Assembly: GCA_016872385.1 (NCBI GenBank)
Contig: VGZV01000001.1
Location: 22,114-86,113, forward strand
DNA length: 64,000 bases
Direction: 5' to 3'
From: SAR202 cluster bacterium
GTDB lineage: Bacteria > Chloroflexota > Dehalococcoidia > Lucifugimonadales > UBA3495
Positions 1,965 to 52,723 of the stretch are shown here, piece by piece. The notes below the pieces were generated by a model that was not told the origin of the DNA, made no database searches, and saw only the letters and a list, made by a program, of their open reading frames with translations. Position 1 is the first letter of the stretch. Each line of letters opens with the position of its first letter. A program made the position numbers and the translations under genes.

Positions 1965-2306
1965 GTGGTAACTGGTATGAAAGAGATCTGGCTTGCTGCG
2001 CTGCGGGACCGGCATGCCAACATTGCAGAGTTCCGCCGCAATTCCGACCAGTTGGCGCGGTGGCTGGCGGCTGAAACCCTCGCTACGCTGCCAGTGGCAC
2101 GCAGGCAGATTGAAACTCCCCTGGGTCAAGCCACCGGCCCCACACCGCCCGAGGATGTCATGGTAGTGGTGATCTTGCGGGCAGCCTTGGCCCTTCTGGG
2201 GCCGTTCATGGAGGCTCTGCCGGGCGTGTCCGTGGGGTTTATAGGCATTGAGCGGGATGAAGGGAATGCACGCCCGCACCTCAGTGCCATTCCTAGGGCC
2301 GGTTAA
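1965..2306 (+). pseudogene. upp: Uracil phosphoribosyltransferase fragment (roughly residues 15-115 of a ~208-aa Upp)
   Basis: LRDRHANIAEFRRNSDQLARWLAAE...IETPLG...VVVILRAALALLGPFMEALPGVSVGFIGIERDE matches the Upp N-terminal half. It stops at 113 aa where it collides with the convergent globin gene, and no C-terminal half follows. Confidence 0.6.
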
Positions 2307-2702
2307 TCAGAAAAGTGGCCGTATGCTCGAAGTAGGCAATTAGCATTGCTGAATCCTCATCCGGGAGATGCATAGACCCAACAGCGGTAGTCATATGTTG
2401 TACCCAGGTGTCGCGCTCGGTCTGGCCAATGGCGAATTTCATGTGCCGCATCCTCAGCCGGGGATGACCCCGTTCGGCGGAGTAATGCGGCGGGCCACCC
2501 CAGTATTGGGATAAGAAGGCAGCCAGATGTTTTTTGCCTGGCTCCAGGTCGGGCGGGTATAGTGGCCGCAGCACGGGATCATTTTCCACCAGGTCATAGA
2601 AACGATTGACCAATGTGATGAAAATGTCTCCCCTCCTGCTCTGTCATAAAGGCTGGCATCTGCCACTGGACTTACTGGAATAGACTTGTCCTCTGGTTGC
2701 AT
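2293..2702 (-). CDS. glbO: Group II truncated haemoglobin (GlbO-like), interrupted by a 1-nt frameshift
   Basis: The C-terminal frame reads VNRFYDLVENDPVLRPLYP...FLSQYWGGPPHYSAERGHPRLRMRHMKFAI (trHbO signature). The N-terminal MQPEDKSIPVSPVADASLYDRAGG is in another frame, starting at ATG 2702. The frames join at the C4 run 2630-2633. Confidence 0.85.
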
Positions 2703-2875
2703 TGAAAAATTGGCCTCCGGAATATCCAGGCCACAAATTCTAAACTCCTTAAAAGTATATCCCCTGATCTCCAATGCGGCACACTGGGTAGTGGGTCAGT
2801 TTGCCGTGGCAAAAAGTCAGGGTTCCAATGGTCACAGCGGCGGAAGCCGGTGTCTAGAGACAGTATGGCTGGGGC

Positions 2876-2921
2876 GTACTGCTGGATTCCGGCTTGCGCC
2901 AGAATGACGAAAAGCTAATTG
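2876..2921. repeat. A-type repeat, right half only
   Basis: CTGGATTCCGGCTTGCGCCAGAATGACGAAAAGCTAATT matches the right arm of the full A elements at 12738 and 43169. Confidence 0.7.
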
Positions 2922-3061
2922 GCCCGTTACCGCACACTGGGTAGGTTGGACAGCGGCGGTTGGTCTCGGTATAATTTGCCATCCCCTTCAATATTCAGTC
3001 ACGAAACCGCCGGGCATTCCATAATCGCCATGCACGTAACTCGTACTTAAGGGGGCAAGAT

Positions 3062-3613
3062 ATGCCAGCCAAAGTTCTCGGCCTCGGTCATGTAGGGTTT
3101 TACGTAAAAGACCTGGAACTGATGAAGGACTTCTACGCGAATTTCATGGGCATGACTCTGACCAAGGTGGGTCCGCTGGGAGCCTTTTTCAGCGCCGATC
3201 CAGAGGCGTGCGACCACGAGATTGCCCTGATTAACGGGCGGCCCTCTCTTGACGACCCCCACTGGATTCAGCAGATCTCCATGCGGGTCGCGTCACTGAA
3301 TGATCTTCGCGACTTCAAGCGGCGCATTATTCAAAAGGGATACCAGCTGGACCGCATTGTATCCCATGCCAGCGCCATCGGCTGTTACTTCAGAGACCCG
3401 GAAGGCAACCCGACTGAAGTGTTCTGGCTAACCGGTATTACGTCTTGGGCCCAAATTGGGGTGCCTATTGACATAGACCAGCCGGATGAAAAGGTCATGG
3501 CGGACGTGCGCAGGTCTTATGAGGTTGTCAGGAACGTGGCAATGGGTCAAGTGCCCAGTCCGGAAACGCTAAAGGCCATTCGAGAGGCAACGGCAGTTGC
3601 CGCAGGCCGTTAA
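3062..3613 (+). CDS. VOC family protein (glyoxalase / extradiol dioxygenase fold)
   Basis: LGLGHVGFYVKDLELMKDFYANFMGMTL...DHEIALI is a VOC motif pattern. An SD-like GGGGG precedes the ATG. Confidence 0.8.
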   Translation: MPAKVLGLGHVGFYVKDLELMKDFYANFMGMTLTKVGPLGAFFSADPEACDHEIALINGRPSLDDPHWIQQISMRVASLNDLRDFKRRIIQKGYQLDRIVSHASAIGCYFRDPEGNPTEVFWLTGITSWAQIGVPIDIDQPDEKVMADVRRSYEVVRNVAMGQVPSPETLKAIREATAVAAGR

Positions 3614-3639
3614 GATTAGGCGATGTAGGTGAAATAGTT

Positions 3640-5019
3640 ATGGTGTCGCTCAGCCGGCAACTGTCTCAGTGGGTAGCGGCTCTGGAATATGAAGATCTCC
3701 CGCCTGCGGTGATTGACCGCGCCAAAGGCGTTACTTTGCACGGCCTTGGATCAGTGCTCCTTGGCTCCCAACTTTCCAAGGGCAGGCAAGCTGCCCAGCT
3801 TGTTGCGTCAGAGGAATCCGGAGTAGCCGCAGGCGCTACCATCATGGTGGATGGCGCCAGGGTGACCAAAGGCGGGGCTGCCTTCGCCAACTCGGAAATG
3901 ATTATGGCGGGCGGCAAGCTGGATTCCTTCCGAATGCTCACGCACCCGGGCACCAGCATTCTTCCTGGGGCCTTTGTGGCTGCTGAAACCGCTGGCGCTT
4001 CCGGCCGGGACTTCCTGACCGGCCTTGCGGCCGGCTATGAGGTAATGGAGCGCCTGGCAGCCGATGTCATTCCCACCGTGATGTCGCGGGGTTTTCACCC
4101 CAGCCCGGTGTTTGGCATCTTTGGTGCTGCTGCTGCCGCCGCCAAGATCCTGAACTTCACCGAGGACCAGATAAATAGCACCATTGCTCTCTGCGCGCAA
4201 CTGGCGGCCGGCAACGTGGAAGGGCCACGCAGCGGAGGCACGGCCCTGCGGGAGGGAGCCGCGGCCCGCAATGCCATGCTGGCTGTGGCCCTGGCCCAGC
4301 AGGGACATGTGGGCGGCGAAACAGTCCTGGAAGGCGATGCGGGCTTCTATCACGCTTATGCCGGCAACAACCGGGGCCAGTTAGCCTACAGCTTCGTGGG
4401 CGCCACGCAGGCCAACCTGGGTAACATTACTAAAGGGATAGGACAGGACTGGCTGTTCCTGGAAACCTTATACCGGATTTATTCAACGGCCGGTTACAAC
4501 ATTGCCCACGTGGACGTCACCGCACAGCTTTGTAGCGAGCGCAACATTCGCTACGAGGACGTTGAACGTGTGGAGGCTGTGGTGAACTGGCTGGAAACCC
4601 AGTATCCCAGCCCAGCCTTCCCCAGCCGGCGGGAAGACGGGCCGGCGCGGGCGAGGAGCACCCCATACTACACGGCCTACGGCGTCGTTCAGCGGGGCTT
4701 TCCGGTGCTGCCAAGCCACGAAGACCCCCCTGAAGTACTGGAGTTGATGCACCGGGTGAAACTCATCCCATCCCACGATATGACCCTCTTTGGGCCGCGC
4801 ATCACAATTTACACCCGAGATGGCAAGAGCTACACCAAGCAGTCCACCGGGCAGGAGTTTATGTGGGACTTCGATGAGGAAGCGCGGCGCGTCAGCGATG
4901 TTATTCCGGGGGTGCCCGTACCCGCGGCCCAGTTTGAAGAAATTATCGAGACTTGCCGCCACCTGGACACCCAGGGCCGGGCCGACCGGCTGGTTCAGTT
5001 GACCTTGAGGCAAGGCTAG
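3640..5019 (+). CDS. MmgE/PrpD family protein (2-methylcitrate dehydratase-like)
   Basis: 459 aa. The N-terminus LSQWVAALEYEDLPPAVIDRAKGVTLHGLGSVLLGS is typical of MmgE/PrpD. Confidence 0.85.
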   Translation: MVSLSRQLSQWVAALEYEDLPPAVIDRAKGVTLHGLGSVLLGSQLSKGRQAAQLVASEESGVAAGATIMVDGARVTKGGAAFANSEMIMAGGKLDSFRMLTHPGTSILPGAFVAAETAGASGRDFLTGLAAGYEVMERLAADVIPTVMSRGFHPSPVFGIFGAAAAAAKILNFTEDQINSTIALCAQLAAGNVEGPRSGGTALREGAAARNAMLAVALAQQGHVGGETVLEGDAGFYHAYAGNNRGQLAYSFVGATQANLGNITKGIGQDWLFLETLYRIYSTAGYNIAHVDVTAQLCSERNIRYEDVERVEAVVNWLETQYPSPAFPSRREDGPARARSTPYYTAYGVVQRGFPVLPSHEDPPEVLELMHRVKLIPSHDMTLFGPRITIYTRDGKSYTKQSTGQEFMWDFDEEARRVSDVIPGVPVPAAQFEEIIETCRHLDTQGRADRLVQLTLRQG

Positions 5020-5036
5020 AATGCAGCTGGGATGAG

Positions 5037-5168
5037 GGTAAGTAGTGCATCAATTATCTGTTCGGCATTCCGGCGGAAGCTGGAATCCAGGAGAAAATCT
5101 GACCCATGTAGATATCTAGACACCGGCTTTCTCCGGTGTGACGGGTTAAGGCTTGGGGTAAGCTGACA
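5037..5168. mobile_element. A-type MITE-like element (inverted orientation)
   Basis: CATTCCGGCGGAAGCTGGAATCCAG ... CTAGACACCGGCTTTCTCCGGTGTGAC, with flanks resembling the family TIR GTAGTG-ATCA. Confidence 0.7.
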
Positions 5169-5246
5169 CTCTACCTGTGGGCAAGGAATCTTAACGCAGA
5201 GTCTTGTAGACCGGCGCCGCTGATGCGGGGCCAAGGCCATAAAACA

Positions 5247-5966
5247 CTACCGGCAAGCTTCCAGCAGTTCGGGAGACCCCAGGGGAACAGCAACGCTATC
5301 CTCAAAGTAGTAAATGTTTTCCATTTTGAAGCCCCAGGAATCACCGCACCGGCAGATGTGCGGTTCAAAAGTAAACAAGCCGCAACTGCCCAGAGTGGTG
5401 TGATTATCTGCTTCGATGTATCGCCTGTCGTCCAAATGCTTCCCTATGCTATGGCCCAGGTTGCCGCGGAAATCAAGATTCTTGTATCCCCGGTCTTTAA
5501 TGGCCTGATTCATGGCCATGAACAGCTGATGCATGGTCGTGTGGGGCGCCGCAGTCTCCATCATCAGCTGGTGAAGCTGCCTTAGCGCCTCAATGCCGTG
5601 GTACAGGCCGGATGTGGCCCCAGGTTGGGCCACAACGCCGGATTCAACTATGTACGAGCGGGCGCAGTCACCCCAATAGCCATCAACCATTGGACTGAGA
5701 TCAATGGTGACCAGGTCCTGCTTACCTATCGCCAATGCCGAGGGTTGGTAAACCTTTCCCGATGCCGAAAGCGTGGTGCGTTCCCCTACCAGCACCAGTG
5801 CTCCAACGTTGTGATACCAGGACTCGCCTGCCCCGTATTGCTTCAAAAGGCGTATGCAGATGGCCGCAACCTCGCGCTCGGTGATGCCCTCTCGAATAAA
5901 GGGCGCAACGTCGCGCAATACCCTTAGCGCGATATTCTGCACATGGAAATGCGAAGATAAATCCAT
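5247..5966 (-). CDS. M24 family metallopeptidase (Xaa-Pro aminopeptidase / creatinase-like)
   Basis: 239 aa. DLVTIDLSPMVDGYWGDCARSY...GNLGHSIG...FTFEPH follows the pita-bread fold metal-ligand pattern. Confidence 0.75.
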   Translation of the reverse strand: MDLSSHFHVQNIALRVLRDVAPFIREGITEREVAAICIRLLKQYGAGESWYHNVGALVLVGERTTLSASGKVYQPSALAIGKQDLVTIDLSPMVDGYWGDCARSYIVESGVVAQPGATSGLYHGIEALRQLHQLMMETAAPHTTMHQLFMAMNQAIKDRGYKNLDFRGNLGHSIGKHLDDRRYIEADNHTTLGSCGLFTFEPHICRCGDSWGFKMENIYYFEDSVAVPLGSPELLEACR

Positions 5967-6210
5967 AAACTAACCGTTAAGTCAGAGCCTCAGTTGTGCG
6001 GCCAAGCGTCTTGTTGGGCCGCTGCCCAAGTATACCGTAATGGCGGAAGTTGGCACGGCAGCTTTGCTATCCCCTGGGGTTTAAGGGGTAGCAGGTGGCT
6101 CGTAATAATTGCCATTGCTCCTCTAAATACCCGGCGGTTTAATTCCTGCGGCGGGGATCTGGCATTGACCTTCCCCACCCGAATCTGCCAAAATACGCCA
6201 AATCCACCAA

Positions 6211-7248
6211 ATGGCGGGACATGGCAGCTGGCGAAATCGAGTATATGGGGGTAAGCAAGTGGCTGAAAATCTGAACATTCTGGTTGGAACAGTCGGCCAA
6301 GGCATAATTCGCAGCCGTGACGATGGGAAAACTTGGCAGCGCGTCGGCATCGGCGCTGGCCTCCATTCCGATGCCCTGGTGCGGTGTATCACCAACCATC
6401 CCAGCCAGCCCCAGGTAGTATTTATCGGCACTGAAAGAGGTCTATACCAGAGCAGGGACGCCGGGCAATCTTGGCGATTTCTTGATTCGCCAATGAACGG
6501 CACTTGTGTGTGGTCGCTGGCCATTGATCCCACGGACACCCACATAATGTATGCTGGGACTGGGACTCCCAACCCGGCCACCATCTTTCGGTCAACTGAT
6601 TCGGGCAAAACCTGGGACCGGAGACCAGTGGTGGTTGCCGCCGAGTGTCCTGCGGTGGGCGTGCCCCGGGTTACCGGCATTGCTATTGATCCTGAAAATC
6701 CCCAGGACATCTGGGCGGGATTTGAGGTGGACGGAGTACGTCACAGCATGGATGGAGGCGAGACCTGGGAACGGCTGGATAGCGAAGCTATTCCCAACCC
6801 CGACGTTCACAACGTGGCCATAGCCCCCGGCCCTCCCAAGACGGTGGTCGTGCTGGTAAATGACGACGTTTTTATGAGCGCCGATGGCGGCGCAAAGTGG
6901 AGGTCGGTGGGAGTACGCCAGAACTTCCCTCTGGGGTATCCCAGGGGTGTTTTGGTTCAGCCGGGTAATCCTAAAACAATCTTTGTCACCCTGGGCGATA
7001 CTACGCCAGGTTCCACTGGGACTATCATGCGTTCCAGGGATACGGGGCGCACCTGGCAGAATCTGACGCTTCCAGTCCAACCCAACACTGCCATGTGGGT
7101 GATACATTCCCAGCCCTTCGCCCCAAACACCTTGCTGGCCGGCAGCCGCTATGGGTATCTGTACCGCAGTGATGATGGCGGGGATAGCTGGGTGAAATTG
7201 TGGCGGGAAGTAAGTGAAGTCTCTTCCATATTGTGGATTCCCAATTAG
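6211..7248 (+). CDS. BNR/Asp-box repeat (sialidase / Ycf48-like beta-propeller) protein
   Basis: Repeated S-x-D-x-G-x-T-W motifs (SRDDGKTW, SRDAGQSW, STDSGKTW, SMDGGETW, SADGGAKW, SRDTGRTW, SDDGGDSW). The start may instead be GTG 6259. Confidence 0.85.
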   Translation: MAGHGSWRNRVYGGKQVAENLNILVGTVGQGIIRSRDDGKTWQRVGIGAGLHSDALVRCITNHPSQPQVVFIGTERGLYQSRDAGQSWRFLDSPMNGTCVWSLAIDPTDTHIMYAGTGTPNPATIFRSTDSGKTWDRRPVVVAAECPAVGVPRVTGIAIDPENPQDIWAGFEVDGVRHSMDGGETWERLDSEAIPNPDVHNVAIAPGPPKTVVVLVNDDVFMSADGGAKWRSVGVRQNFPLGYPRGVLVQPGNPKTIFVTLGDTTPGSTGTIMRSRDTGRTWQNLTLPVQPNTAMWVIHSQPFAPNTLLAGSRYGYLYRSDDGGDSWVKLWREVSEVSSILWIPN

Positions 7249-7368
7249 GCTGACCATGCCTCTGGAACGTCAGCAATAACGAGACACTTTGAGAGAGGAT
7301 GATACACTGGAGGTGTCGGATGAAGTCTGGCACTTTTGAGAAGTGATCTGCTTCTTCACCTAAGATTG

Positions 7369-7640
7369 CCTAACAAAATGAAGGATGTCATTCTGAGGAG
7401 TCCCGATGACATCGGGACGACGAAGAATCTGGGGTGGTGGGCGTTTGCCCCACCCCAGACCCTTCGTCCTTCAGCCGAAGGACTCAGGGTGACAGCTTCG
7501 GCATTTTGTTAGAGCGTGTGTGAGAAATGCCGTCTACCCAGCCCGCTCATCCTGAGCTTGTCGAAGGATGAGTAGCTTTTAGCCCGCTCATGGTTCGACA
7601 AGCTCACCACCAGCTGGAATTGTCACACACCCTCTTAGGG
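7369..7640. mobile_element. B-type MITE (TIR CCTAACAAAATG / CATTTTGTTAGG) carrying a nested C-type MITE
   Basis: Near-identical to the uninterrupted 145-bp copy at 34338-34482. This copy is split after CATTTTGTTA by the element at 7512-7634. Confidence 0.85.
7512..7634. mobile_element. C-type MITE (TIR GAGCGTGTGTGAG / CTCACACACCCTC) inserted into the B element, TSD TTA
   Basis: 13-bp terminal inverted repeats. TTA occurs at 7509-7511 and 7635-7637, versus a single TTA in the empty site at 34478-34480. Confidence 0.85.
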
Positions 7641-7886
7641 GTTCTAAGAAGACTGCCATCCGGAAGCCACTACCAGGAGAAATCCACACCCTCCTGGATT
7701 CGCAGAGCCTCTTGCTGGTTCAATGTCCTCCAGTAGCGCATGGTCATTGCCTGGCTGGCATGGTCAACTGGTTCTGCACTGTAGAAAGTCAGCGCTGTTC
7801 GGATATGCTCCCAGTCAATGAAGGGTGATGGTCAATGACCTCCGACATTAATTCTTTAGTGACTGTGATTATCCTCATACCTGCGG

Positions 7887-13228: not shown

Positions 13229-14631
13229 ATGACCTCTCTTCAGGTAGCAAATAAACATGGTGGACATGCTACTTTGGACGTGGTTGTTCTTGACCAGTTT
13301 AATAAAGGAATACGCGGCCAAGTGGTGACTCCCGGCCAACCCAATTATGACCAGGCGCGGTCCCTCTGGAATGGCAATGCGGACAAACATCCGGCGCTAA
13401 TTGTCCAGTGTGACGGGGTGGCTGACGTCATCGCCTGTGTCAATTTCGCCCGGGACAACGGCCTGCTGCTCTCGGTACGGGGGGGCGGGCACAGCTTTCC
13501 CGGCACCTCGGTGGCCAACGACGGCCTGGTAATTGACCTGTCAGGTATGCACAGCATCCGGGTAGACCCGGTGCGGCGCACTGCCCGGGCGGAAGGGGGA
13601 ACCCGCTGGGGGGCTTTCGACCACGCCACCCAGGCCTTTGGCTTGGCCACTACCGGGGGCACTAACACTGATACCGGTATTGGTGGGCTGTCCCTGGGCG
13701 GCGGCCACGGCTGGCTGGGCGGTAAGCACGGGCTTGCCTTGGACAATCTGATCTCAGTGGACATCGTCACCGCCGACGGAAAACTGCGGATTGCCAGCCA
13801 GGAAGAGAACGCAGACCTTTTCTGGGCAGTGCGGGGTGGTGGCGGAAACTTTGGGGTGGTGACCTCCTTTGAGTACCGGCTTCACCCCGTGGGAGAATTG
13901 CTGGCGGGAATGCTGATCCATCCTATCGAGCGGGCCGCCGAAGCCTTTCGTTTCTACCGGGACTTCACTCGAAATGTTCCGGATGAGTTTACCAGTTGGT
14001 TTGTTTTGATGGTCTCCCCAGAAGGCCAGCGTGTGTGCGTCATTGTGCCCTGCTACAATGGGCCCCTGGCCGAGTGGGAGAAGTACCTAGAACCTTTACG
14101 AGAGTTCGCGCCTCCTGTAGCTGACTTAGTAGGCCCGATGAAGTATGAAGCCCTGCAGGCGCTTACTGACGACGCGCTAAAGGCCGGGCGGCAATACTAC
14201 GAAAAATCCCTCTTTCTAAAGGAAATCAGCGACGAGGCCATAGAAACCATCATCGAACACTACGACCGGGCCACGGCCCCCTACCGGTGGTGTTGCTTCA
14301 GCAGGTGGGCAACGCGGTGCTGCGGGTGCCCAATGCGGCGACGGCCTACGGCCATCGGGACGGGGCATACAACTGTCTTGCCATCCCGGTGTGGGACGAC
14401 CCTGGGGAAATGGAGATTCACCGCAAGTGGGCCCGAGACTTGTGGGAGGCCTTACTGCCCCATGGCACCGGCGGCTGGTACATAAATAACATAGGTAGTG
14501 AGGAGGACGACGGGGCGCAGGTGGTCCGCTCCTCCTTCGGCCCCAACTACCGGCGGCTGGCGCAAGTTAAGCATAAGTACGATCCAGACAACCTTTTCTG
14601 CCACAACCAGAACATTAGGCCTTTGGCTTAA
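13229..14631 (+). CDS. FAD-binding oxidoreductase with C-terminal BBE (berberine-bridge) domain, interrupted by a 1-nt frameshift
   Basis: The FAD_binding_4 pattern is LLLSVRGGGHSFPG...GIGGLSLGGGHGWLG. The C-terminal AYGHRDGAY...NYRRLAQVKHKYDPDNLF is in a second frame (track ORF 14287-14631). The frames join at the C5 run 14277-14281. Confidence 0.85.
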
Positions 14632-16810: not shown

Positions 16811-17060
16811 ATGGTCGCGCAATTCAGGGTGGATCCCCAATCGCTAGCCAAGCTTCGCCTCCTGGATAAAGCCGGACGCATCGCCCGAAGAGGGGTGAGG
16901 TTCATCCGCATCTTCGACCCCACCCCGGTCAGCGGACTAGCCGCCCAACCCCCACTTTGAGGACCTGGATTTGGCGGGGCAGCGCCAGTCCCTCCTGTTT
17001 ACTGGCCATATTGAATTGGACGGCTCCGTCTACCTGGCCCAGGTTGCCGCTGCCGGATGA
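16811..17060 (+). CDS. Possible small unannotated ORF (~83 aa) split by a 1-nt indel
   Basis: ATG 16811 MVAQFRVDPQSLAKLRLLDKAGRIARRGVRFIRIFDPTPVSGLAAQP, then after the C5 run 16949-16953 the +1 frame reads HFEDLDLAGQRQSLLFTGHIELDGSVYLAQVAAAG-stop (17058-17060). No family was recognised. Confidence 0.3.
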
Positions 17061-22056: not shown

Positions 22057-24975
22057 ATGCGCGTGACCTTTACGGCGCACTTCTTGTCTGGGCCGTGGTG
22101 GGCGGGAATCTTCCTGGGCGTACTGGCCCTGTTCCTGGCGGTGAATATCCGTGCCAGTGAGGCCATGTCTTGCCCGGCGGGTTCCACGGCTGGCGACATC
22201 GGATTTGGAGAGCACATAGCATGTTCCATTGATGTCGCAGGTGAACAGGATTTTTTCACATTCAGCGGGGTCAGCGGTGAAGCTGTGTACGTGCGGGTGG
22301 CCCGCACCAACCCATCGCCTCTGGTCCTGGAGGCCCGCATCTTCCGTCCGGACAATTCTTCCCTCTGCAACGGCACCACCGCTTCCTTCAGCGATACGGC
22401 ATGCGTGCTTAACGTGACTGGCACATTCAAGATAAGGGTTTCCAATCCCGTCTCCAGCGCCACTGGGCCATACGTGCTTTACCTGCAAAACTTGACCACC
22501 CCAGTGAACGCTGCCGCCGCCAGCTATGGCGACAACTATCCGGGCAATCTTGCTGCAGGGCATGTGGCAGCTTTTACGTTCAGCGCTTTGGCGGGAGAGA
22601 ATATATTCGTGCGTTTTGCCCAGGCAGCGCCTTCGGCCTCTCTGGACCCCGAATTCAAGATTTACGGATCCGGCGGCGTCGCGCCGGTTACTCTTCTGGG
22701 GCAGGACTGCAAACGCTTCTCCTCCACCAGTGCCTTCAGAGACTGCAATATTGATGTGGATGACGCCTACACTGTGCTGGCCTTTGACCACAACGCCAGC
22801 GGTTCCGGCGATTACGTCTTTTACCTTCAGAACGAGAGCCATCGGCAAAATACCACGGTCACTACCTTTGGACAGAACTACTCGGGAATCCTCGGCCCGG
22901 GCCAAGTAGCCGACTTCACCTTCACCGCAGCTGAGAATGAGGCAGTTTACGTGCGATTTGCCCGCGCCGCCGCTTAGGCCAGCTTTGACCCGCAGTTGGA
23001 GTCCTACGATGCCGACGGCGGCTGGTTTTGCGACGGCTTTGGCGCCCACTATGCGGTGCTGGGCTGCACCATCGCCTACACCAACGGCACCCACACGGTC
23101 CTGGCCTTTGACGAAAACGGCTACCATGACGGAAGCTACGTTTTCTATTTGCAGCGGTTGAACGACCCAGTCAATGCCACGGTTTTGCCCTTTGGAGCCA
23201 CCTTGCCTGGAAGCATTGGCCCTGGGCAAGTGGCTGCCTATACCTTCAACGGAGTCGCCGGCCAGGAAGCCGATGTGGAAGTCATGGAGTCGGGGCCAAT
23301 GTCCCCGGAGTTTGAAGTGTATGGAGCCGAGACTTGGTGCTCCGTTTGGGACCAAAGTGTGGCCACACTTACTTGTCCCCTGGACAATGGTGTGCACACC
23401 ATCCTGGTCTATGACCATGTGGCGCATAACAGCGGTTCCTTTGAGATTACCCTTTGCCACACGGAGACTGGCTGTGTGGTGGCGGAAAATGCCAGCATCT
23501 CCTTAGTGAAAAAGACTAACGGCCAGGACGCCAACAGTGCGCCAGGCCCCACCTTAATTGTTGGAGACCCCATAACCTGGACTTATGAAGTCACCAATAC
23601 CGGCACGGTGACGCTCACCAGCGTCATGGTCAGTGATGATCAAGGGGTGGCGGTTAACTGTCCCAGCAATTTGCTTGCTGCGGGCGTATCCATGACTTGC
23701 ACCGGCAGCGGCGTGGCGGTAGCAGGGCCGTACAGCAATATTGGCAGCGTTACAGGCGCTCCGCCCGCTGGTGACCCGGTGGCTGCACAAGACCCAAGCC
23801 ATTACTTTGGCGTGAACCCCACGCACCTGAAGCTGGTGAAAGTGGTGGTGAACGACAACGGCGGCACTGCGGCGGCCACGGACTGGACCCTTTCTGCTGC
23901 TGGGCCAACGCCCCTGAGCGGGGCAGGGGAGGTGGAGGGCGACGTTGCGCCGGGCACTTATGCTCTTTCAGAGTCCGGGCCAGCCGGATATGCCACCACG
24001 GGGTACGATTGCGGGGCATCGGTGACCCTGGCGCTGGGAGAGTCGCGCACCTGCACCATCACCAACAACGACGTCCCGGCGCACCTGAAGCTGGTGAAGG
24101 TGGTGGTGAACAATAACGGCGGCGCTGCGGCGGCCACGGACTGGACCCTTTCTGCTGCTGGGCGTACGCCCATTGGAGGCGCGGGCGGCGCTGAGGGAGA
24201 TGTCAGCGCCGGTACTTACACCCTCTCCGAGTCTGGGCCTGGGGGTTACACCACCACCGGCTACGACTGCGGGGCGTCAGTGATCCTGGCGCTGGGAGAG
24301 TCGCGGACCTGCACCATCACCAACGATGATATGGTGCCTGATACTGCTAAGCCAGTCTGCACCATGACCGCGTACGCCACCGACCAAAACGGCAAGCGTT
24401 ACATTGAAATGTCGGTGCAGGACGCTCAGAGTGGTCTGTATAGCATTACCGTGCTGCACGTGGTCAACGCAGTAGTTACCGGTCTGACCGACCCCACCGT
24501 GGGAGTGCCCAACCTGATGGGCGGCACTACTTTGCCCGTGGCAGTTAGGGCCACCCAGATTAATCTTGGGCAGGGGCTTCAGTTGCAGTTCCTGGCCAAG
24601 GACGTGGCGGGAAACAAGGTTGCTTGTGATCCCATTGAAATCCCCATTGAACGGGGACGGGGGAAGCCGGTGACTGTTACCGTGACCGATGAGGTGCCCG
24701 GTTGCCCGGAGTGCGGCATCCCGCCAGGCACCGGGGTTGTTGCCATCATTCAGAACGGCGACCCGGGCGTGCTGCAACTGACGCTGGTGGTCAACCGGAC
24801 ATCATGGTCTTTGCGAGGGCTGGAAGCAAACGAGGAGCGAACCCTGGATATCTCGTCGGCCATCGCTGCCAAGGAGGCGGCCATCAACACTTTTTCGGTA
24901 ACCGTCCACGGCAAACCCTCCAAGGACGACGTGGCTAGGTCGGCGCTAATCACCATTCTCTGGCCCGCACCCTGA
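22057..24975 (+). CDS. Secreted or membrane-anchored multi-domain repeat protein (4 PPC-like beta-sandwich modules, DUF11-like domain, 2 prealbumin/SpaA-like repeats, C-terminal domain) with one in-frame TAG at 22975-22977
   Basis: Track ORFs 22057-22977 and 22996-24975 share one frame. The TAG sits inside module 3 (VRFARAAA-*-ASFDPQLESY versus VRFAQAAPSASLDPEFKIY in module 2). The N-terminus has a signal/TM segment. Confidence 0.8.
23824..24339 (+). repeat. Tandem duplication, 2 x 258 bp (86-aa domain HLKLVKVVVN-NGG-AAATDWTLSAAG...GESRTCTITN)
   Basis: Units 23824-24081 and 24082-24339 are largely identical at nucleotide level at both ends and diverge in the centre. Confidence 0.9.
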
Positions 24976-34607: not shown

Positions 34608-36825
34608 CTATTGCACCAGCAGGCCGGCGCATTCTCCAGGCGCGCCAACGAACCCCAGGGCGGTAGCCGCTGCGTTGGGGATGTACTGCACCTTGAAGGA
34701 GTAGGTCCCCACCGCCAGCGGGCCATAGTTGCTGGACTGGGCGGTTGTGACACCGCTGCCGCCGCTAAGGGCCACTGTTTGCATGGAGGCAGGCCGGACA
34801 TTGCAGCTTGAGGTGCCTGTGAAGTATGCAATACTCACGCTGCCCGTTGGCGTCGCCGATGGGTCGCTACTGGTGATTGTGGCCTTGACATAGACGGAGG
34901 ACCCGGAGGCCACTACCTTCACGTTGCAGTTGTTGAAATTGCACAAAGCCGTGGCCGGAGGAACTGCCAGGACCTCCGTGCCCACAGTGGCCACTGGCGG
35001 CGGCACAATGGTGAAGGAATAAACAAACGGGGCCATGACGTTGCCCGCCAGGCCCCCGGCTTCCACGGTCACATCCACTACCTGGGAATTGGCAAAGTTA
35101 ACGGCTGGGTCGTAGGTCAGCGTGTAATCCGCCGCCGAGCCGGTGATGGCTGGTGACACCACGGTTCCTTCCACCGTCATCTTCAGGCTGGAGAGGTTGA
35201 CCCCTGCGGCCAAGTCTTTCACGTGCACCACAATGTTGGTGTAAACGGGTACGTTGGTGGCTCCCGGCAGCGGGTCGTGGCCCGAGGTGAAGGGCGGGGT
35301 TACGTCCAGCACCGTGACCACTGCGGTGTCGCATCCTGCGCCGCCGTTGTTGTCGGTTACGCAAACGGCGGCGTTAAACGCGCCTATGGAGTTGTAAGTA
35401 TGGCTCAAGGCAAAGGTCTTGCTGGCCGTCAGGGTCAACGGCTGAATGCCTGAGCCGTCGCCGTAGTCCACGGTGGCTGTCCAGGTATCACTGCCGGCGT
35501 CAGTAAAGGAGCCGGAACTGGAAAAAGCGGCACCCTGGTTGATGGTGGCATCGGGGCCTGCGTTCACCACCGGCGCCACGTTGGCAACCACTACTGAGGC
35601 AGTGTCTGTCCCGCTTTTGCCCAGGGTGTTGGTGACTTTCAGCCCTATGCTGAAAGTCCCGTTGTCGGAAAATACCACTGCTACCGTAATTCCGGTGGCA
35701 TCATCGTATAGATTGTCGTTGTCCAGGTCCCACAGGTAGGTTAAAGCGCTGCCGCCGGGTTCGCTCGATCCTGTGCCAGTGACGGTCACGGCGCTGCCTT
35801 CAGCTCCAGCATAAGGTCCGACAGCCTCTGCAGTGGGTGGCGGCAGGGGAGTTGGCGTCGGCGCCGGAGTAGGCGTCGGCCCCCCCTGCGACTCCGCCGC
35901 AGTTGGTGGCGCCGCTGTCGGTGAAGGTCTTGCCCGCCACCGGAATAAATTGCCAGTCGTAGCTGGTGGGGTGCAGCGTAAGTTTGAGCACGCCGTGAGT
36001 ATTGGCGTTACGGACCTCGCTATTGGGCAAAACAGTGCCAATGCGCGACAGTCCAGCTCCGCCGGTGCCTACGGTAATCTGCCGGAAGCCGTTTACGGGG
36101 TCGGCTTGGCCTGCCGGGTTCTGCAGGCCAAATCGCTCGTAGATGTGTTCATGGGCATTGAGCACCACGTCCACACCGTTGTCGTAAAGAATCTGGAGCA
36201 TCGGAATGATGTTGGGATTGACGCCGCCATGGGTGGTGCCGGAGCTGAAGGCCGGGACGTGCCAATAGGCCAGCAAGCACTGAGACCTGCTGCGGCCCGC
36301 CAGGTCGCTGAGCAGCCAGCTGGTTTGAGCAGAACTGGGGCTGCTGAGGGAGACCACGTGCCATGCGCCCAGGTCGTAACTGTAGTAACCCAGCCCGTTT
36401 GGACCTGCGTTGGCCCCGAAATAGGTATAGTAGGGCACGCCGCCGGTGCCTTGCATATCGTGGTTGCCCGGGGCAGGCTGGGTGCGGGCCTTGTGGCGTC
36501 CCCACACCGGGTCATAACAGTTGTTAAAGTTGTCGGTAGTGCCGCTGGGGTACACATGGTCCCCCAAGGTAAGCACAGTGCCCGGAATACTGTCCACCAG
36601 TGTGGCGGTGGCTGAGTCGGTGGTGAAGTTACAGCCCGCAATGTCACCGGCTGCCACCACCACTGGGTCGGTCACTTGGCCGGGCGCCTGACTGGCGGCG
36701 AAATTGTCAAACACCTTGAGGGAATTGTAGGCAGTCGGGAGTTGGTACAGCACGCCAAACAAACTGGCCAGCAGCACCAGCGCTGCAACAGGCCACCAAC
36801 GCCGCAATCGCATAAACAGCATCAC
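34608..36825 (-). CDS. Secreted metallophosphoesterase fused through a Pro/Thr linker to PKD and Ig-like domains; interrupted by a 1-nt indel in a G7 run
   Basis: Track ORFs 35800-36825 (GDHVYP...GNHD...NAHEHIYER calcineurin-like motifs, N-terminal TM/signal) and 34608-36041 (PTPTPAPTPTP linker, PKD-like YLWDLDNDNLYDD..) overlap out of frame. They join at the C7/G7 run 35880-35886. Confidence 0.8.
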
Positions 36826-38126: not shown

Positions 38127-38144
38127 AAGCTTGTATCAGAAGGA

Positions 38145-40580: not shown

Positions 40581-41254
40581 ATGCCTGTGCGCCGCAAGTG
40601 GGGAATGCCGGAGGAAGTTTGGTGGCTGAGCGTATTGCTCGGCATGGCCATCAGCCCCATTCTGTTGGCCTCAACGGTGGTCGTGGCGGACAAGGCCATC
40701 CTGTCCAGTTCTTCATACAGCCGGCAGTACCGTGCACCTGGCGGAGGCGCTCCAGTGCCAGGCGGGCTGCTGCCCAGTTCTGGCGCGGCCTCCGCCGGTT
40801 TGCCAACGCCCGTTTCCGGACAAAGCGGCGGCCACGGATTGGGAGCAGGTAGTTCTCCATCGGCGCCTGCCCAATCCAGCGGTGCGCCACTGGCCGCCAC
40901 TTCCGTTGCGACGCCTGCCGCCACCGTCGCGGTTACACCCGCGCCTACCAGCACTACGGTGGCGGCGCCGCGCGCAAGTTTGCCGCCCCTGGATTGCAGC
41001 AACGAGCCGGACTTACGGTCCACGGAAGGCGCGGTTGTCACTTCTGTGGAGTTCACCAACGGGTCTACCAAACCCGTGCGGGTTTACTGGCTAGACTACA
41101 GCGGGCAGGCCAGCTCTACCAGACCTTGCCTACCACCGCCCACTATGTCCAAAGCACCTGGGTCACTCACCCCTGGGTGGTGACGGACTTGAACGGGCGG
41201 TGCCTGGCTATTTACCTGGCGGTGGCTCAGCCGGGGAGCGTTGCACTAAAATAA
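40581..41254 (+). CDS. Membrane-anchored protein with C-terminal VHL beta-domain; interrupted by a 1-nt indel
   Basis: N-terminal TM, Ala/Ser/Pro/Gly-rich low-complexity linker, then LRSTEGAVVTSVEFTNGSTKPVRVYWLDYSGQ / (frame change near 41103-41111) / QLYQTLPTTAHYVQSTWVTHPWVVTDLNGRCLAIY. This aligns with the human VHL beta-domain pattern LRS..V.F.N.S...V..WL...G....Y.TLP......S...H.W...D..G. Confidence 0.65.
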
Positions 41255-41925: not shown

Positions 41926-41998
41926 GAGTTAGGAGCCGCAGTCGTACCAGAAAGGGTTCTTAGCTGGCTGGGATCAGTTCGGCGGCCACCATTAGCCA

Positions 41999-43024
41999 GT
42001 GGGTAGCATTATCCCAGCTCATGTCCGCCACCTGGCTGAAGTTGTTGCGATTGCCAAGGTTCTGGACCTGAATTCGTTAATCGCAGATACATCCAGAATG
42101 TTGAACAGGGTTATCGGTGATGAGGTGGAACTGACCACAGACCTGTCCCCCAACTTGGGCCTGGTCAAGATAGATTCCGGCCAATTTGTCCAGGTTATCA
42201 TTAACATGGCTATCAACGCCAGAGATGCCATGCCGCAAGGCGGCAAGCTGAGAATCTCCACCAAGAGCGTCATCATTCAGCAGGGACAAGCTTCCCAGCT
42301 TCATATACTGGCGCCTGGAAAATATGTGGCCGTCACTATAGCGGACACCGGCGCTGGCATGACTGAGGAAGTCAAAGCCCACCTGTTTGAGCCCTTCTTC
42401 ACCACCAAGGAACTGGGCAAAGGAACTGGTCTGGGGCTGTCCACTTGCTACGGGATTATCCGGCAGGCGGGCGGGCATATTGAAGTCGCCAGCGAGCCGG
42501 GGCAAGGCGCAGCCTTCACCATCTACTTGCCAACCGTCAGTGCTGTGGCAGAGAGGACTACCGACGCTCCTCAAGCGGCTCCCCGGCCGCCGGCCTGGGA
42601 GACCGTCCTTCTGGTGGAGGACGATCCCAACGTCCGGAAATTTGTGGGAGGGTGCCTCCGCCTGGAAGGGTATGAGGTCATTGAAGCGGTCAACGGCGTA
42701 GAGGCGTTGTCCGTGATGGGAAACCATCCTGACAAGCCAATCCATGTTTTGGTTACTGACGTGGCAATGCCACGCATGGGGGGACAGGAGTTGGCCCAGC
42801 AGCTTCAGATCGCTCAGCCGGGTGTCAAGGTGCTGTTCATCTCGGGCCATGCTGTGAGCGGTAGCGCAGCTGGCAATGCCGCCGCGCCTGGGACAGACGT
42901 GCTGCTGAAGCCTTTTTTGCCAGATGTCTTGGCGCGCAAGATCCGCGAGTTGTTGGATAAGCCGGATGCACTCGCCCATTCTGTGGCTGCAGAAGTGCGG
43001 ACTTCCCGCGTTTCTCCTCAGTAG
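41999..43024 (+). pseudogene. Hybrid histidine kinase remnant: HATPase_c plus receiver domain only; sensor and HisKA phospho-acceptor regions missing
   Basis: Starts at ...KVLDLNSLI (the segment that normally follows HisKA), with N/G1/G2 boxes (NARDAMPQGG, DTGAGM, GTGLGLS), then REC (LLVEDDPNVR...VTDVAMPRMGG). A terminator lies immediately upstream and no HisKA is present in any frame. Confidence 0.6.
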
Positions 43025-43168: not shown

Positions 43169-43300
43169 GTAGTGTATCAGTTTGCTTAAGGCCTCAACTT
43201 GTCACACCGGCCTTCGCCGGTGTCCAGATACAGAATAGATACAATTCTCTACTGGATTCCGGCTTCCGCCGGAATGACGAAGGGCTAATTGATACACTAC
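43169..43300. mobile_element. A-type MITE, intact 132-bp copy
   Basis: TIR GTAGTGTATCA / TGATACACTAC. Internal CACACCGGCCTTCGCCGGTGTCCAGATA...CTGGATTCCGGCTTCCGCCGGAATGAC. Confidence 0.85.
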
Positions 43301-43500
43301 CATCCATTGGTGTTTCTTGCTTCTGTCCTGGCAATAGCAGTGTAAAACGTGGTAGTGGCGTAGGCTTGCTTGACTGATTAGATAGCTGCCGGGGCCAGAG
43401 GGAGCTTGTTCACGTAAGGACGGATGACACGGATGTGTCCTCTGGCATATACTGAGCTTCGTTAGGTAGTGTTGGCCAAGACTGGCTGAAGCTCGTTCCA

Positions 43501-45366: not shown

Positions 45367-45387
45367 AATCTTGGTGAGAGGCTGGCT

Positions 45388-48300: not shown

Positions 48301-48543
48301 ATCGTGTTTGCCATGATTCCCCTAGCTCTGAAGCTGGGGCCGGGGGCTGAGTCCCGCTCACCCATTGCAGTGGTGTTGATGGGGGGAGTCATCAGTTCCA
48401 TGCTGCTGACCCTGGTGGTGGTGCCAGTGGCCTACGATCTGCTGGAAGAGGCTTTGGCGTGGGGGAAAAGAGCGCCTGCGTTGATGCGGGGGGCAGGCGC
48501 GCCAGCCCCGCGGTTGCCGCCCAGGTGCATGGCGGCGGCTTGA
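45388..48543 (+). CDS. Efflux RND transporter permease (AcrB/HAE1-type)
   Basis: 1051 aa. FAIKRPVTIAMFILGMVLIG N-terminus and a 12-TM duplicated architecture. Confidence 0.92.
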   Translation: MGITQFAIKRPVTIAMFILGMVLIGIMAYDRLQVSRLPNITFPVVTIQVGYPGASARDAEQLVARPIEQAVNGLAGLQDITSTSTEGRATIRLTLADNADLNQAVGEVDRIMSSIRSRLPDDIDPPNVIRADINAQPIMNISLSGDVSLGQLYTLATERIAPRLQSVEGVAQVNVSGGLRPEVQVLVDPTKLQAYGLTLQQVQTALSQSNLNSPGGTVYQGVTQFDVRTSASLDSVDQFRDIVVSSGPAGSVYLRDVARVEDTFAPQRTMQRFNGQPSVGLSIVQQSGANAVQTVELVREELERLEPTLPASAEFHVTNDASRFTKASIHAVQTDLLIAVVLCGLVLLVFLHAWRNTVIVLLAIPTSLISTFLVMYLLHFSLNTISLMALALLVGILVDDSIVVLENIHRHRQLGEEPLLAAVKGRNEIGAAAIAITLTDVVVFLPIAFISGSLGQLLREFGLTVVAATLFSLFISFTLTPMLAAHWLKPEKFNLRRRDAAARQYLDLGRFGEAWDASLDRLARHYQEVLRWALGHPLVVLLAGGAALGTAIAFIPLHILGTEYTPVEDDNQFNVQVQMPPGTSLQGTSEAMTRLEAKLMELPEVRGVFATVGSSGQRADSGSISVQLVDKGQRQRTATEVLQDARRIGRTIPGASVSGNVPSSLGGGGSPISIRILGSDFDTLKEVAAQVSAVVRDTPGATDVRFSDPAGLPEVDAVVDWTRMAPLGISASSVSGTLRTAVTGSVAGQFDRPDGTQSDVRMKIEGADHMTVAHLGALPIYSPVAGSSVRLDQVARLEQVLGPSQINRASQQRSLTLSANVSGRSLGEVARDLETQLQQIQLPPGYRVVFTGQVDRLNQTFTSLQQTLMLSALMIYMLLAALYESLLRPLAIMFSIPLALVGAFTGLLVSGNTINLFSMIGMILLMALVAKNGILLIDYADTLHKRGVARREAILEAGATRLRPILMTSFTIVFAMIPLALKLGPGAESRSPIAVVLMGGVISSMLLTLVVVPVAYDLLEEALAWGKRAPALMRGAGAPAPRLPPRCMAAA

Positions 48544-48571
48544 GTACGGCGCCTGGTGACGACGGTGACGA

Positions 48572-49171
48572 TTAGGTCTGCTCCACCAGCCAGCGCAATA
48601 GCGCCTCCACTTCCTCCACAGAGTGTAGCTTGAGGTCAATGACCGCCAGAAAGTCTGGGCGGTTTTCTGCGTTTACTACACCGATGCCCAGAGTTTTGAC
48701 ATCCTCGGTTTCCCGCAGGGACCGCACCGCATAGAACGCGTCCATGTCGGTGATGTCATCGCCAAGATAGATGATGCCACGCAATTGGTGAGCCGCCATC
48801 AATGACCGCAGCACGGTGCCTTTGTTAATTGCCAGGGGCGGCCGCAGTTCCAGAACCCTCCGTCCTTCCGTTATTTTGAGCCCTCCTCGGTCTGCGAGAG
48901 AGACAGGTATCCCTAGACATGATGCAGACCTGCATAATGCAACCAGCCTTTGGGTAAGCTGGCGGAGCGAAAGCTGCCGGTTGGCGGTTTTGGCCGCCGC
49001 TCCACCGGTGATAAAGGCGTCCCCGTTGCGGGGACAGGCACTGGATTGGGGATTCAGTGCCTGGAGTAGCCTGGGATGCCTGCGCCTTCGGGCGGCGCGT
49101 CCAGGAGTTTCTGGACTCGGCCCCCAGCCAGTCGCACCAACTACGACTGGATGACATATCTTTATCCTCAC
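48572..49171 (-). pseudogene. Trehalose-phosphatase-like HAD protein, apparently degenerate (C-terminal third conserved, catalytic DxDGT motif and cap region eroded)
   Basis: The C-terminal VLELRPPLAINKGTVLRSLM...IIYLGDDITDMDAF matches OtsB motifs III/IV. The N-terminal position of DxDGT reads GATGW and the middle region is about 60 aa short. Confidence 0.4.
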
Positions 49172-49478
49172 ATGAGTATAACCTGCATATTATGATATAA
49201 CAGCCCCTGGAATGTGGTGCACTTACGGATGACTCATTGAAAATAGCAATCAATATGTAAAAAGTTAATCCTAATTTGCCGTACACTGGTCGGCGGCTCT
49301 GATGTTGGCATGGGATTAGGTGGCACATGCTGGGCCACTGCCGCGGGTGTGAATGGGAAAAACCCGTGACGGTGCTAGATTTGCCAAGGTGAACCTGCGT
49401 TGCAATTATGTATAATCGCCTAGGAGTATTGTCCACTTTCTTAGAATTTTCCCATTTACTTTTTGGCGGCCAGGGATT

Positions 49479-50958
49479 GTGGTCTCATGCCGCTGCTGCC
49501 GAAGGATTGTCTGCTTAGTGACTGACCGTCCTGATCTTACGCCCACAGAAGGGGACAGCGCCGTCCAGGTACAAGTGGACCACGGTTTATCCAGGCCGTT
49601 GGCCAGGGCAATTACCCTGGACAAGCAAGTGACCGCCCCTCCCAAAACATTGGGAGTTAACGGTGTCGCCCTGGGTTTCGCCCTGTTGATTTTGCTGGGT
49701 ACGGTACTTCTTTCGTTGCCCGTGGCCCTAGCGCCAGGCACTGACTGGGATGTTTTGACTGCTTTTTTTACGGCTACCTCCGCCGTGTGTGGTGGGCTTG
49801 GTGGTGGTGGATACGGGCACGCACTGGAGCACCTTTGGTCAGGTAGTGATTATCACCTTGGTGCAGTTGGGCGGCCTGGGGGTAATGACCGCCTCCATGT
49901 TCATCCTCATTATCTTGCGAAGGCCCATATCATTCCGTGACCGCTTTGAACTAAGGGAGGTTTCTAAGGCCGGCGGGATCCAATCGGTGGCTGGCCTTAT
50001 CTGGGCAACTGTGCTGGTGACCCTGCTTTTTGAAGCAGTGGGCGCGGCGGCTTTGTGGTACCGCATGGACGGTTTGGAGGGGAACCATAGGGCCATCGGG
50101 ATGGGCGTATTTCATGCGGTGTCTGCCTTTAATAATGCCGGCTTCGATTTGATGCCGCCATTCACCAATTTGACAACTTACGCCACTGATCCTTTTTTCT
50201 TGCTGGTAACCGCCCTTCTGGTCTTTTTTGGCGGCATTGGCGCCCTGGTTCTGATGGACATTTTTAGCAAACGCACCTGGAAAGCCTTATCTCAAAATTC
50301 CAGAATTGTGCTAATTGCTTCGGGGATTTTGCTCCTCGTCGGGTTTCTGGGAATTCTCGCCACTGAGTTCACAAACCCCAAGACCTTGTTCCCCCTTAGC
50401 TGGCACGACAAGTTGGTCAACGCCTTTTTTCACTCAGTAACGGCCCGTACCGCAGGATTTGACTCACTGAGTGTGGCGGATTTCAAAGACGAGACCCAAT
50501 TCTTACTTATGCTGTTGATGTATATCGGCGGAGCCACCGGTTCTACCGCCGGCGGTATTAAAGTCACTACTCTGGCAATTTTGGTGCTGGCTTCTCTGGC
50601 TGCAGTCCGCGGGTATGAACACGCTTCGGTTATGGGAGCACGGCTCAGCCACCGCCTGGTTTACCGGGCGATGTCGGTGGCGGTGCTCACGCTGTTTGTT
50701 ATTTTCCTTGCGACTCTGGTGCTCACCGTCTCAGAAGAGTTCTTGTTCCGCCAAGTCCTGTTTGAGGTCGTATCGGCATTTGCCACGGTGGGCCTGACCA
50801 CCGGCATAACCCCGGACTTGAGCCTGGTGGGAAAGCTGACCATCATAGTGGTCATGTACCTGGGCCGGCTGGGACCGTTGACTTTGGCCTATGCCCTGGC
50901 CCAACGCGCCAGGGAGCCCAGCTATCAGCTGCCGGAAAGGGAAATCGGCATTGGTTAG
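49479..50958 (+). CDS. trkH: TrkH/KtrB family potassium uptake protein, interrupted by a 1-nt indel
   Basis: The first frame reads GFALLILLGTVLLSLP...FFTATSAVC. The second frame (track ORF 49789-50958) reads GLVVVDTGTHWSTFGQVVIITLVQLGGLG. They join at GG 49791-49792. The true start is uncertain (GTG 49574 is possible). Confidence 0.8.
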
Positions 50959-50978
50959 TCAGCAGAGGGAGGTGCCTC

Positions 50979-51617
50979 TTGGCAAAAAACGTGGTAATTG
51001 TTGGCTTGGGGCGGTTTGGGTCAGTCCTGTCGAAAGAGCTGACTCAGGCCGGCTATGACATTCTGGGCGTGGACCGGCGTCCCGACCGGGTGCGGGAAAT
51101 GGGCCAGACAATTAGCAAGGCGGTGCAGGGAGAAGCCACCGATCCGGAGCTTTGGCGGGACATTCCTGTGAAGGGCGCGGACGCTGGAGTTGTAGCCTTC
51201 AGTTCCAGCGTGGAAGCCAATGTGCTGGCGGCGCTTCTGATGCGCCGGGCGGGGCTTAAGCACGTGGTGGCCGTTTCCCGCAGCGAACTGCACTCGGAAG
51301 TCTTGCAGGCCATTGGGGTGGACCAGATTGTGGAACCCCAGGTGGAAAGCGCCATGCGGCTGGCGCGAGCCTTTGGCACTAATATCAAGGACTATCTGGA
51401 AGTGACCAAGGGCTTTGGAATAGCCCGGATTCCGGCGGAGACCCACTGGAAGGGCGCTACCGTGCAGAAAGTCCAGCAGGATGAGGATGTGACGGTGCTG
51501 GCGCTGGTGCGGGGCCACCGGGTTTTGCTGGTGCCTTCGGAGAACGACAAGCTGAGTGAGGGGGATGTGCTAGTGCTGGCAGGCAAGGATGGAGACTTGC
51601 GGAAGCTGCCGAGTTAA
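50979..51617 (+). CDS. trkA: TrkA/KtrA family potassium uptake regulatory protein (RCK N and C domains)
   Basis: VVIVGLGRFG Rossmann motif, 212 aa. TTG start with a GAGGGAGG SD. Confidence 0.85.
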   Translation: MAKNVVIVGLGRFGSVLSKELTQAGYDILGVDRRPDRVREMGQTISKAVQGEATDPELWRDIPVKGADAGVVAFSSSVEANVLAALLMRRAGLKHVVAVSRSELHSEVLQAIGVDQIVEPQVESAMRLARAFGTNIKDYLEVTKGFGIARIPAETHWKGATVQKVQQDEDVTVLALVRGHRVLLVPSENDKLSEGDVLVLAGKDGDLRKLPS

Positions 51618-51675
51618 GTGGCATGGACTGGGCGCGTGGAAGACGTGCGTGGTTTACTGACATGAGGCGACGCCA

Positions 51676-52723
51676 GTGACTAACCCGATGCTTGGCCTTG
51701 CTTTACTGATATTGCTGGCAAAAGTCCTTGAGGAAGTTGCCGCCCGTCTGCGCCAGCCGCCGCTGCTGGGCGACGTGGTGGCTGGACTCCCCATGGGACC
51801 GCTGGGATTTTCCGCGGTGCACCCCAGCGATGAGCTGGAGCTGTTCATAACTATCGGTATTTTCTTCCTGGTTGGTCTGGAAGAAATTGATGTAGCTGGG
51901 TTCTTGGCAAACTTGCGCACGCGGCTGTTTGTGGCCTCGGTGGCGGCGTTTGCCGCTCCCTTCGCACTGGTTATGGTGGTCTGCCGGTACTTTGGGCTGG
52001 GTTAGACGCCGGCCATAGCCATCAGTTCCGTGGCGGCCATTTCCAGCTTGAGCGTACTGGCCAAGGTGCTGGGGGATATGGGGCGGCTTCGGGACCACAC
52101 CGGCTCCAGCTCTTTAGCATCACCGTCATTGTGGAGCTTTTGGGGCTGCTGATTGTCAGCGTGCTGACTTTCACCGCCGCGGGGGCCAGGAATTTGAGGC
52201 CCTGGAGCTTCTGTGGTTTGCGCTGGGAGTTGTAGGCTTTATGGTGGGCGGCTGGGTGCTGGGGCATTGGCTGGCGCCCCGGTTGCTGCGCCTGGCGTTG
52301 CGCTATACCAGCGCCCGGGAAATTCCCTTTGGCGTCCTGATGGGCATCCTGTTGCTCTTTGTATATTTCGGAGAGCTTAGCGGGGTCCACGGCACTATAG
52401 GCGCATTGTTGTTGGGCGTAGCAATGTCCAGGAGCGCCCACGAGTTCCACGCGGATGTGGTGAAGGGGTTCCGCAGCATTGTCTACGGGGTCTTTGTGAC
52501 CATATTCTTCGCTGGCGCCTGGTTGCGCCTGGACCTCTCCTTTTTGCAGCTTTCTGGACTGGTGGTGGCCGGGCTCATTGGCGCAACCATCATCATCACA
52601 AATATATGCCCTGCCACCCCAAGTATAGCAGTATTTAACGATGTTACTCACCGAATATTGTCATATATTCACTTATTGGGACTATTTACTGAGAAGTGGA
52701 GTTATATTTGTCGTGCTTGTTGA
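51676..52723 (+). pseudogene. Cation:proton antiporter (CPA2/Kef-type) pseudogene: in-frame TAG, two frameshifts, truncated and replaced 3' end
   Basis: LLILLAKVLEEVAARLRQPPLLGDVVAG...TAG at 52003-52005...ISSLSVLAKVLGDMGRLRD. Frame change near 52103-52107, then LQLFSITVIVELLGLLIVS. Frame change at the G5 run 52181-52185, then EFEALELLWFALGVVGFMVGGW. After about 52600 the sequence becomes AT-rich and non-homologous. Confidence 0.8.

Follow-up and report, generated by a model that had tools for sequence, protein, structure and literature searches.

Slipped-strand mispairing at mononucleotide runs produces pseudogenes, as seen in mutation-accumulation lines, in Mycobacterium leprae and in bacteria that became host-restricted recently, while runs of G or C also serve as phase-variable contingency loci in Neisseria, Campylobacter and Haemophilus. 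Here, we analyzed the broken genes of a 64-kb stretch of a SAR202 metagenome-assembled genome (MAG; contig VGZV01000001.1), and this whole stretch of 64,000 nucleotides (nt) is referred to below as the window. About 12 of its 56 loci, or about one gene in five, are broken, a recount that slightly revises the figure of roughly 11 of about 55 given in the initial annotation. These broken genes are very probably genuine pseudogenes that arose by slippage and decay and are fixed in every assembly sampled, in a near-clonal SAR202 population of Lake Tanganyika.

The window resembles slippage-decayed genomes of the M. leprae type in several respects: its ±1 indels are concentrated in homopolymer runs, nonsense mutations and partial deletions occur alongside them, one gene carries several lesions, and short intergenic interspersed repeats are abundant. 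Unlike those genomes, it comes from a free-living planktonic lake member of the Chloroflexota and not from a pathogen or symbiont, and the sample considered here is 64 kb only. Slipped-strand mispairing combined with relaxed selection is a textbook mechanism, and what is new is its instance in a planktonic lake SAR202; no paper was found in the literature on SAR202 pseudogenes. The host MAG belongs to the SAR202 cluster (Chloroflexota, Dehalococcoidia) and was obtained from Lake Tanganyika metagenomes. The window has a G+C content of ~59–60%, one tRNA-Pro gene and a urease/urea-transport cluster, and its proteins are those listed at NCBI as 'MAG: ... [SAR202 cluster bacterium]', MBM3941332 to MBM3941377.

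Each frameshift proposed in the initial annotation was tested by repairing one base and asking whether the product then matched a Pfam model, the EncM structure or an intact homologue without interruption. Seven of the eight listed genes and eight of the nine listed sites were found to be truly frameshifted, as shown in Table 1, with five deletions and three insertions among them, in agreement with the earlier statement that both kinds occur. The unrepaired glbO is an open reading frame (ORF) of 106 residues that covers Bac_globin profile positions 15–117, with its lost start, 'SLYDRAGGE', lying upstream in another frame; one base added at the C4 run extends the match to positions 1–116 and raises the score from 93.5 to 107.3 bits. 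The flavin adenine dinucleotide (FAD) oxidase has its FAD_binding_4 and BBE domains in different frames, and with one C added it aligns over residues 1–450 with EncM (E = 1e-111), the junction being free of gaps. Its nearest intact orthologues are of 467 residues and share 74–78% identity, its only 100% match is a fragment of 403 residues, and no intact allele above 78% identity was found among 5.8 billion proteins. A DNA alignment with one intact orthologue opens a single gap of 1 nt, where the C5 run ends; this orthologue (L099) shares no synteny with the window outside the gene itself. A HMMER search placed the conserved small protein in a family of 84–130 residues, and the removal of one C from its C5 run yields a full-length alignment with an 84-residue homologue (P0138) at 55% identity. 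Nearly all of the top homologues of the metallophosphoesterase-PKD fusion hold both domains in one chain, and the repaired protein gives a BLASTP alignment that is continuous over residues 55 to 609, across the junction, with the shift in the Pro/Thr linker, where the C7 run is located. Comparison with orthologues, as the initial annotation had proposed, thus shows single-frame homologues for the oxidase, the metallophosphoesterase-PKD and the small protein, and disrupted copies in the window.

The remaining frameshifts were recovered through profile matches. Neither piece of the VHL gene matches Pfam, while the repaired protein contains a VHL beta domain (32.5 bits). The repair of trkH widens its TrkH match from profile positions 78–489 to 59–489, and the adjacent trkA is intact. 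When the three frames of the CPA2 antiporter gene are joined and its TAG is read through, a single Na_H_Exchanger match is obtained over profile positions 2–312 of 375, with its two frameshifts running in the same direction. Four lesions in one gene are what would be expected of a gene that was already dead, and the decay of CPA2 is older than that of the other broken genes. Many of the other breaks look recent, because most broken genes have one lesion and the trkA next to trkH is intact.

Table 1. Broken loci of the window, with positions counted from its first letter
Locus	Lesion	Coordinates	Strand	Evidence
upp (uracil phosphoribosyltransferase) remnant	3' half gone	1977..2306	+	Pfam UPRTase profile positions 9-109 of 206 only
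glbO (group II truncated haemoglobin) pseudogene	1-nt deletion at or next to C4 2630-2633	2293..2654	-	Bac_globin, repair
Tyrosine recombinase/integrase	3' remnant	7670..7762	-	match to P0266 (PF00589)
EncM/BBE-like FAD oxidase pseudogene	1-nt deletion at C5 14277-14281	13274..14631	+	split domains, orthologue alignment
Conserved small protein (~82 residues)	1-nt insertion at C5 16949-16953	16811..17060	+	homologue alignment
Large repeat-containing surface protein (CLIPPER_2/SpaA_2 domains)	in-frame TAG at 22975-22977	22057..24975	+	
Metallophosphoesterase-PKD fusion gene	split by 1-nt insertion at C7 35880-35886	34608..36825	-	homologues, BLASTP
VHL-beta-domain protein	1-nt deletion within 41103-41113	40635..41254	+	Pfam VHL after repair
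Hybrid histidine kinase (HATPase_c and receiver domain, no HisKA)	5' truncation	41999..43024	+	
otsB (trehalose-6-phosphate phosphatase)	3' remnant	48572..48880	-	Pfam Trehalose_PPase profile positions 145-208 of 235 only
trkH/ktrB pseudogene	1-nt insertion within 49789-49794	49653..50958	+	TrkH profile, repair
CPA2 cation/proton antiporter pseudogene	TAG 52003-52005; frameshifts near 52103-52109 and at G5 52181-52185; 3' truncation	51676..52723	+	

Lesions of other kinds stand beside the frameshifts, namely two in-frame TAG codons and the truncations of upp, otsB, the histidine kinase, the integrase and the 3' end of CPA2. Those already proposed (both TAGs and the upp, kinase and otsB remnants) were confirmed by Pfam, repeat-unit comparison and stop-codon usage. 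The TAG of the surface protein lies in the middle of a repeat unit, at a place occupied by Ser in an earlier unit of the same protein. TAG ends 20 of the 47 ordinary window genes, and because it is the commonest ordinary stop here, both in-frame TAGs were taken as real nonsense mutations. The upp ORF ends where the convergent glbO ends, and the sequence upstream of the otsB remnant is degraded. Pfam scans of the ORFs in the window's gaps returned nothing beyond the otsB remnant, and ten further window genes scanned with Pfam gave full-length matches, with no added truncations. A screen of codon-position G+C for hidden frameshifts was too noisy, as antisense frames also look coding.

One listed frameshift, that of a possible small ORF in the GGG at 7823-7825, was rejected. 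No small-protein family was found in the homologue search around this site, which is located just upstream of the integrase remnant and beside a cluster of short repeats. The sole database match there is that of the remnant itself, to the C-terminus of the tyrosine recombinase P0266, with 84% identity over 'HAS.AMTMRYWRTL.QQEALRIQEGVDF.W'.

All confirmed lesions recur in other assemblies. JGI/IMG contigs, the longest of 133 kb, and a 108.9-kb ENA contig also carry the window proteins, and the contigs compared were those encoding exactly the same neighboring proteins as the window. They were taken from the Logan per-run assemblies of SRR7990525, SRR7990526, SRR7052762, SRR7052952, SRR16108669 and SRR16108675 and from two JGI samples of Lake Tanganyika, 3300020603 and 3300020198, which hold pieces identical to the window. 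Sequencing of these Lake Tanganyika samples used the Illumina HiSeq 2500 platform with 2x150 reads (PMC8245535). The per-sample contigs from Logan and JGI align with the window over 88 kb and differ from it by 1 mismatch and 0 gaps, so that the population is almost clonal across samples, and all lesions were covered, at positions 1784-7396 (glbO), 12963-17189 (oxidase and small ORF), 19549-23896 (first TAG), 34461-38175 (C7 site), 38149-43296 (VHL) and 43274-57187 (trkH and CPA2). The glbO lesion recurs unchanged in an ENA contig and in a Logan contig of SRR16108669 that occurs in five samples, the oxidase and small-ORF lesions in one Logan contig (L014), the metallophosphoesterase-PKD lesion in another (L008), the VHL lesion in two (L016 and L017), the trkH and CPA2 lesions in three, and the region of the first TAG in one (L012); for the oxidase, the metallophosphoesterase-PKD and this TAG, the ENA contig also agrees. 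The ENA MEGAHIT contig equals the window letter for letter over 9698-48126. The sole indel between any assembly and the window concerns the run at 48488-48493 (+), which is G7 in ENA, whereas the window and three Logan contigs have G6. This run lies in the C-terminal tail of an RND pump gene, where only the last residues change (1051 residues with G6, 1062 with G7), and the difference supports the reading of genuine decay as a case of active run-length change.

The association of the frameshifts with G/C runs was assessed over intervals that extend from the last to the first residues matching homologues and were padded by 6 nt at both ends. Over the eight intervals, the longest overlapping runs are 4, 5, 5, 7, 3, 3, 2 and 5 nt. 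The earlier claim that every frameshift is a ±1 change within a G/C run is therefore meaningful at five of the eight sites, with C4, C5, C5, C7 and G5, and does not hold for the VHL, trkH and first CPA2 sites, where the runs of 2–3 nt are at chance level (55–60% of random windows of the same size hold a run of ≥3 nt). Runs of ≥5 nt are found at four of the eight sites versus 4–7% of random intervals of the same lengths. At least four such sites were obtained in 0.02% of 100,000 simulations (p ~2e-4), or in 0.3% when the small ORF was left out, these p-values being approximate because the runs were already known when the intervals were set.

Of the two origins first suggested for the frameshifts, homopolymer-length errors of sequencing or assembly in genes that are truly intact are very improbable. 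The window does share with the indel artefacts of 454, Ion Torrent and nanopore data the appearance of split ORFs that are joined at a G/C run, five of its frameshift sites lie in such runs of 4–7 nt, and the G6/G7 difference between two assemblies is possibly an error in one of them. Unlike such artefacts, however, the lesions recur in independent assemblies: at least six separately assembled runs, the two JGI samples and the ENA assembly match at every lesion with 0 gaps, an agreement that random miscalls of run length cannot produce, and Illumina, the platform documented for the JGI samples, yields no consensus homopolymer indels. Neither are the lesions confined to homopolymers, as two nonsense codons, five truncated remnants and three frameshifts fall outside meaningful runs, while most of the window's G/C runs of ≥6 nt lie inside intact genes. 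The homopolymer artefact was rejected because all lesions recur without gaps in separate assemblies and the documented platform is Illumina, and genuine decay, first considered likely only for the non-homopolymer lesions, is supported for all of the confirmed ones. That the tracts are instead contingency loci, switching their genes on and off reversibly, is scarcely credible. The C7 tract does lie in a secreted or surface-type multidomain protein, the metallophosphoesterase-PKD, and the tract at 48488-48493 does vary between assemblies, but the latter sits in a dispensable C-terminal tail, the tracts are short (4–7 nt), and the eight disrupting sites show zero length variation across all assemblies, which are consensus sequences and leave minority run-length alleles outside their view. 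The affected genes are also mostly cytoplasmic or metabolic, such as the globin, the oxidase and trkH, a range unfit for surface-antigen switching. Decoding of the frameshifts and TAGs by programmed frameshifting, transcriptional slippage or stop-codon recoding, such that full-length proteins would still be made, is extremely unlikely. Both internal stops are TAG and several of the shifts are in homopolymers, where slippage can be favored, whereas the shifts run in both directions, the oxidase, metallophosphoesterase-PKD and small-protein orthologues are encoded in a single frame, TAG is an everyday terminator in the window, and CPA2 joins a TAG to two same-direction shifts and a truncation.

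A narrower form of decay, in which selection on salt and osmotic functions was relaxed after a marine or saline ancestor entered fresh water, appears unlikely as the driver, although it is well above a negligible chance. SAR202 is mainly a marine group, the habitat here is a freshwater lake, and three of the 12 broken loci encode a K+ uptake channel (trkH), a cation/proton antiporter (CPA2) and a trehalose-phosphate phosphatase (otsB), clustered at 48.5–52.7 kb. Against this, trkA is intact, and nine other broken loci, including the globin, upp, the oxidase, VHL, the kinase and the surface proteins, have no link to salinity. Targeted loss was kept as a secondary hypothesis because these nine are unrelated to ion or osmolyte balance. 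A UreC search of genome contigs returned three Dehalococcoidia chromosomes at 83–86% identity, the closest genomes by this protein, but their synteny with the window stops at the genes for urease and urea transport, and they give no reading of the ancestral trkH, CPA2 or otsB. A TrkA search of genome contigs for related genomes returned nothing, and a scan of metagenome contigs gave only an unrelated 2-kb contig.

Genuine pseudogenization thus remains the preferred explanation, and its likely course can be outlined. The frameshifts would be ±1 replication-slippage events, with about half of these in G or C runs of 4–7 nt (in a genome of 60% G+C, no sequence is more prone to slippage than such runs), while the remaining lesions would be other small indels, base substitutions and deletions. 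The genes would presumably have lost their functions, and their lesions, along with the two nonsense mutations and several partial deletions, might have escaped purifying selection and become fixed through weak selection, either in a small or recently bottlenecked population or after needs were recently relaxed. Several points weigh against this explanation or narrow it. Among the sources compared, which include the Logan SRR runs and ERZ27247963, platform and origin are documented only for the JGI Lake Tanganyika samples, and some runs may be the reads behind the MAG itself. The runs at the VHL, trkH and first CPA2 sites, three of the eight, are no longer than chance, so slippage in a run is only a possible cause of these frameshifts, and the orthologue alignment of the oxidase cannot separate the loss of a C from the loss of an adjacent base. 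Some fragments could still be functional, for example a metallophosphoesterase without its PKD tail. Outside the window, over 6 kb on its left and 9 kb on its right, no obvious breaks are seen among the gene calls, so the density of broken genes may be local and not genome-wide.

Besides the broken genes, at least five families of intergenic interspersed repeats of 80–160 nt were observed, with hairpin cores and the look of miniature inverted-repeat transposable elements (MITEs) or repetitive extragenic palindromes. One family has copies at 2794-2930, 12732-12868, 17195-17276 and 43164-43300, and another at 7511-7603, 12849-12941 and 25199-25291, while pairs were found at 7363-7512 and 34332-34481, at 29767-29873 and 58529-58635, and at 21678-21757 and 61957-62036. 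The per-run contigs break off at interspersed repeats. At 7363-7629, the ENA contig k141_1508467 links the window from 7503 onward to another left flank, which carries a Wzy_C/TPR gene, and positions 1-7629 of the window are found on a different ENA contig, with the breakpoint within a repeat; either the structure varies here or one of the assemblies was joined wrongly.

Elements rich in G/C runs, translating as 'PPF(A/R)KGG', were also observed inside the urease operon at 55159-55285 and 57035-57346. One of them fills the gap between ureB and ureC, one or two form an apparent N-terminal extension of ureF, and together they contain many of the window's G6, C6 and C7 runs. An Rfam match to 5_ureB_sRNA at 56583-56884 (+), of 98.8 bits, is antisense to conserved ureC coding sequence and most likely reflects ureC coding conservation and not a small RNA gene. 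In the VHL protein, which is bacterial, a VHL beta domain of eukaryotic type follows a long N-terminal region rich in Ala, Pro and Ser.

The pseudogene share expected in a free-living bacterium is a few per cent, and the density of broken genes in the window is far above this expectation for a planktonic bacterium. The clonality, the short interspersed repeats and this density together hint that a freshwater branch of a largely marine clade has recently gone through a bottleneck or changed its habitat. For annotation, the split genes should be treated as pseudogenes, neither 'polished' away nor counted as two proteins each, and the lineage merits a genome-wide check of its pseudogenes. It is possible, though doubtful, that a free-living and near-clonal SAR202 endemic to Lake Tanganyika is in genome-wide decay following a recent bottleneck or a move from marine to fresh water, with pseudogenes at ~20%, MITE-like repeats that proliferate, and the osmotic-adaptation genes trkH, CPA2 and otsB among its losses. 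If this were true, it would be a rare planktonic case of the genome erosion that is usual in host-restricted bacteria.

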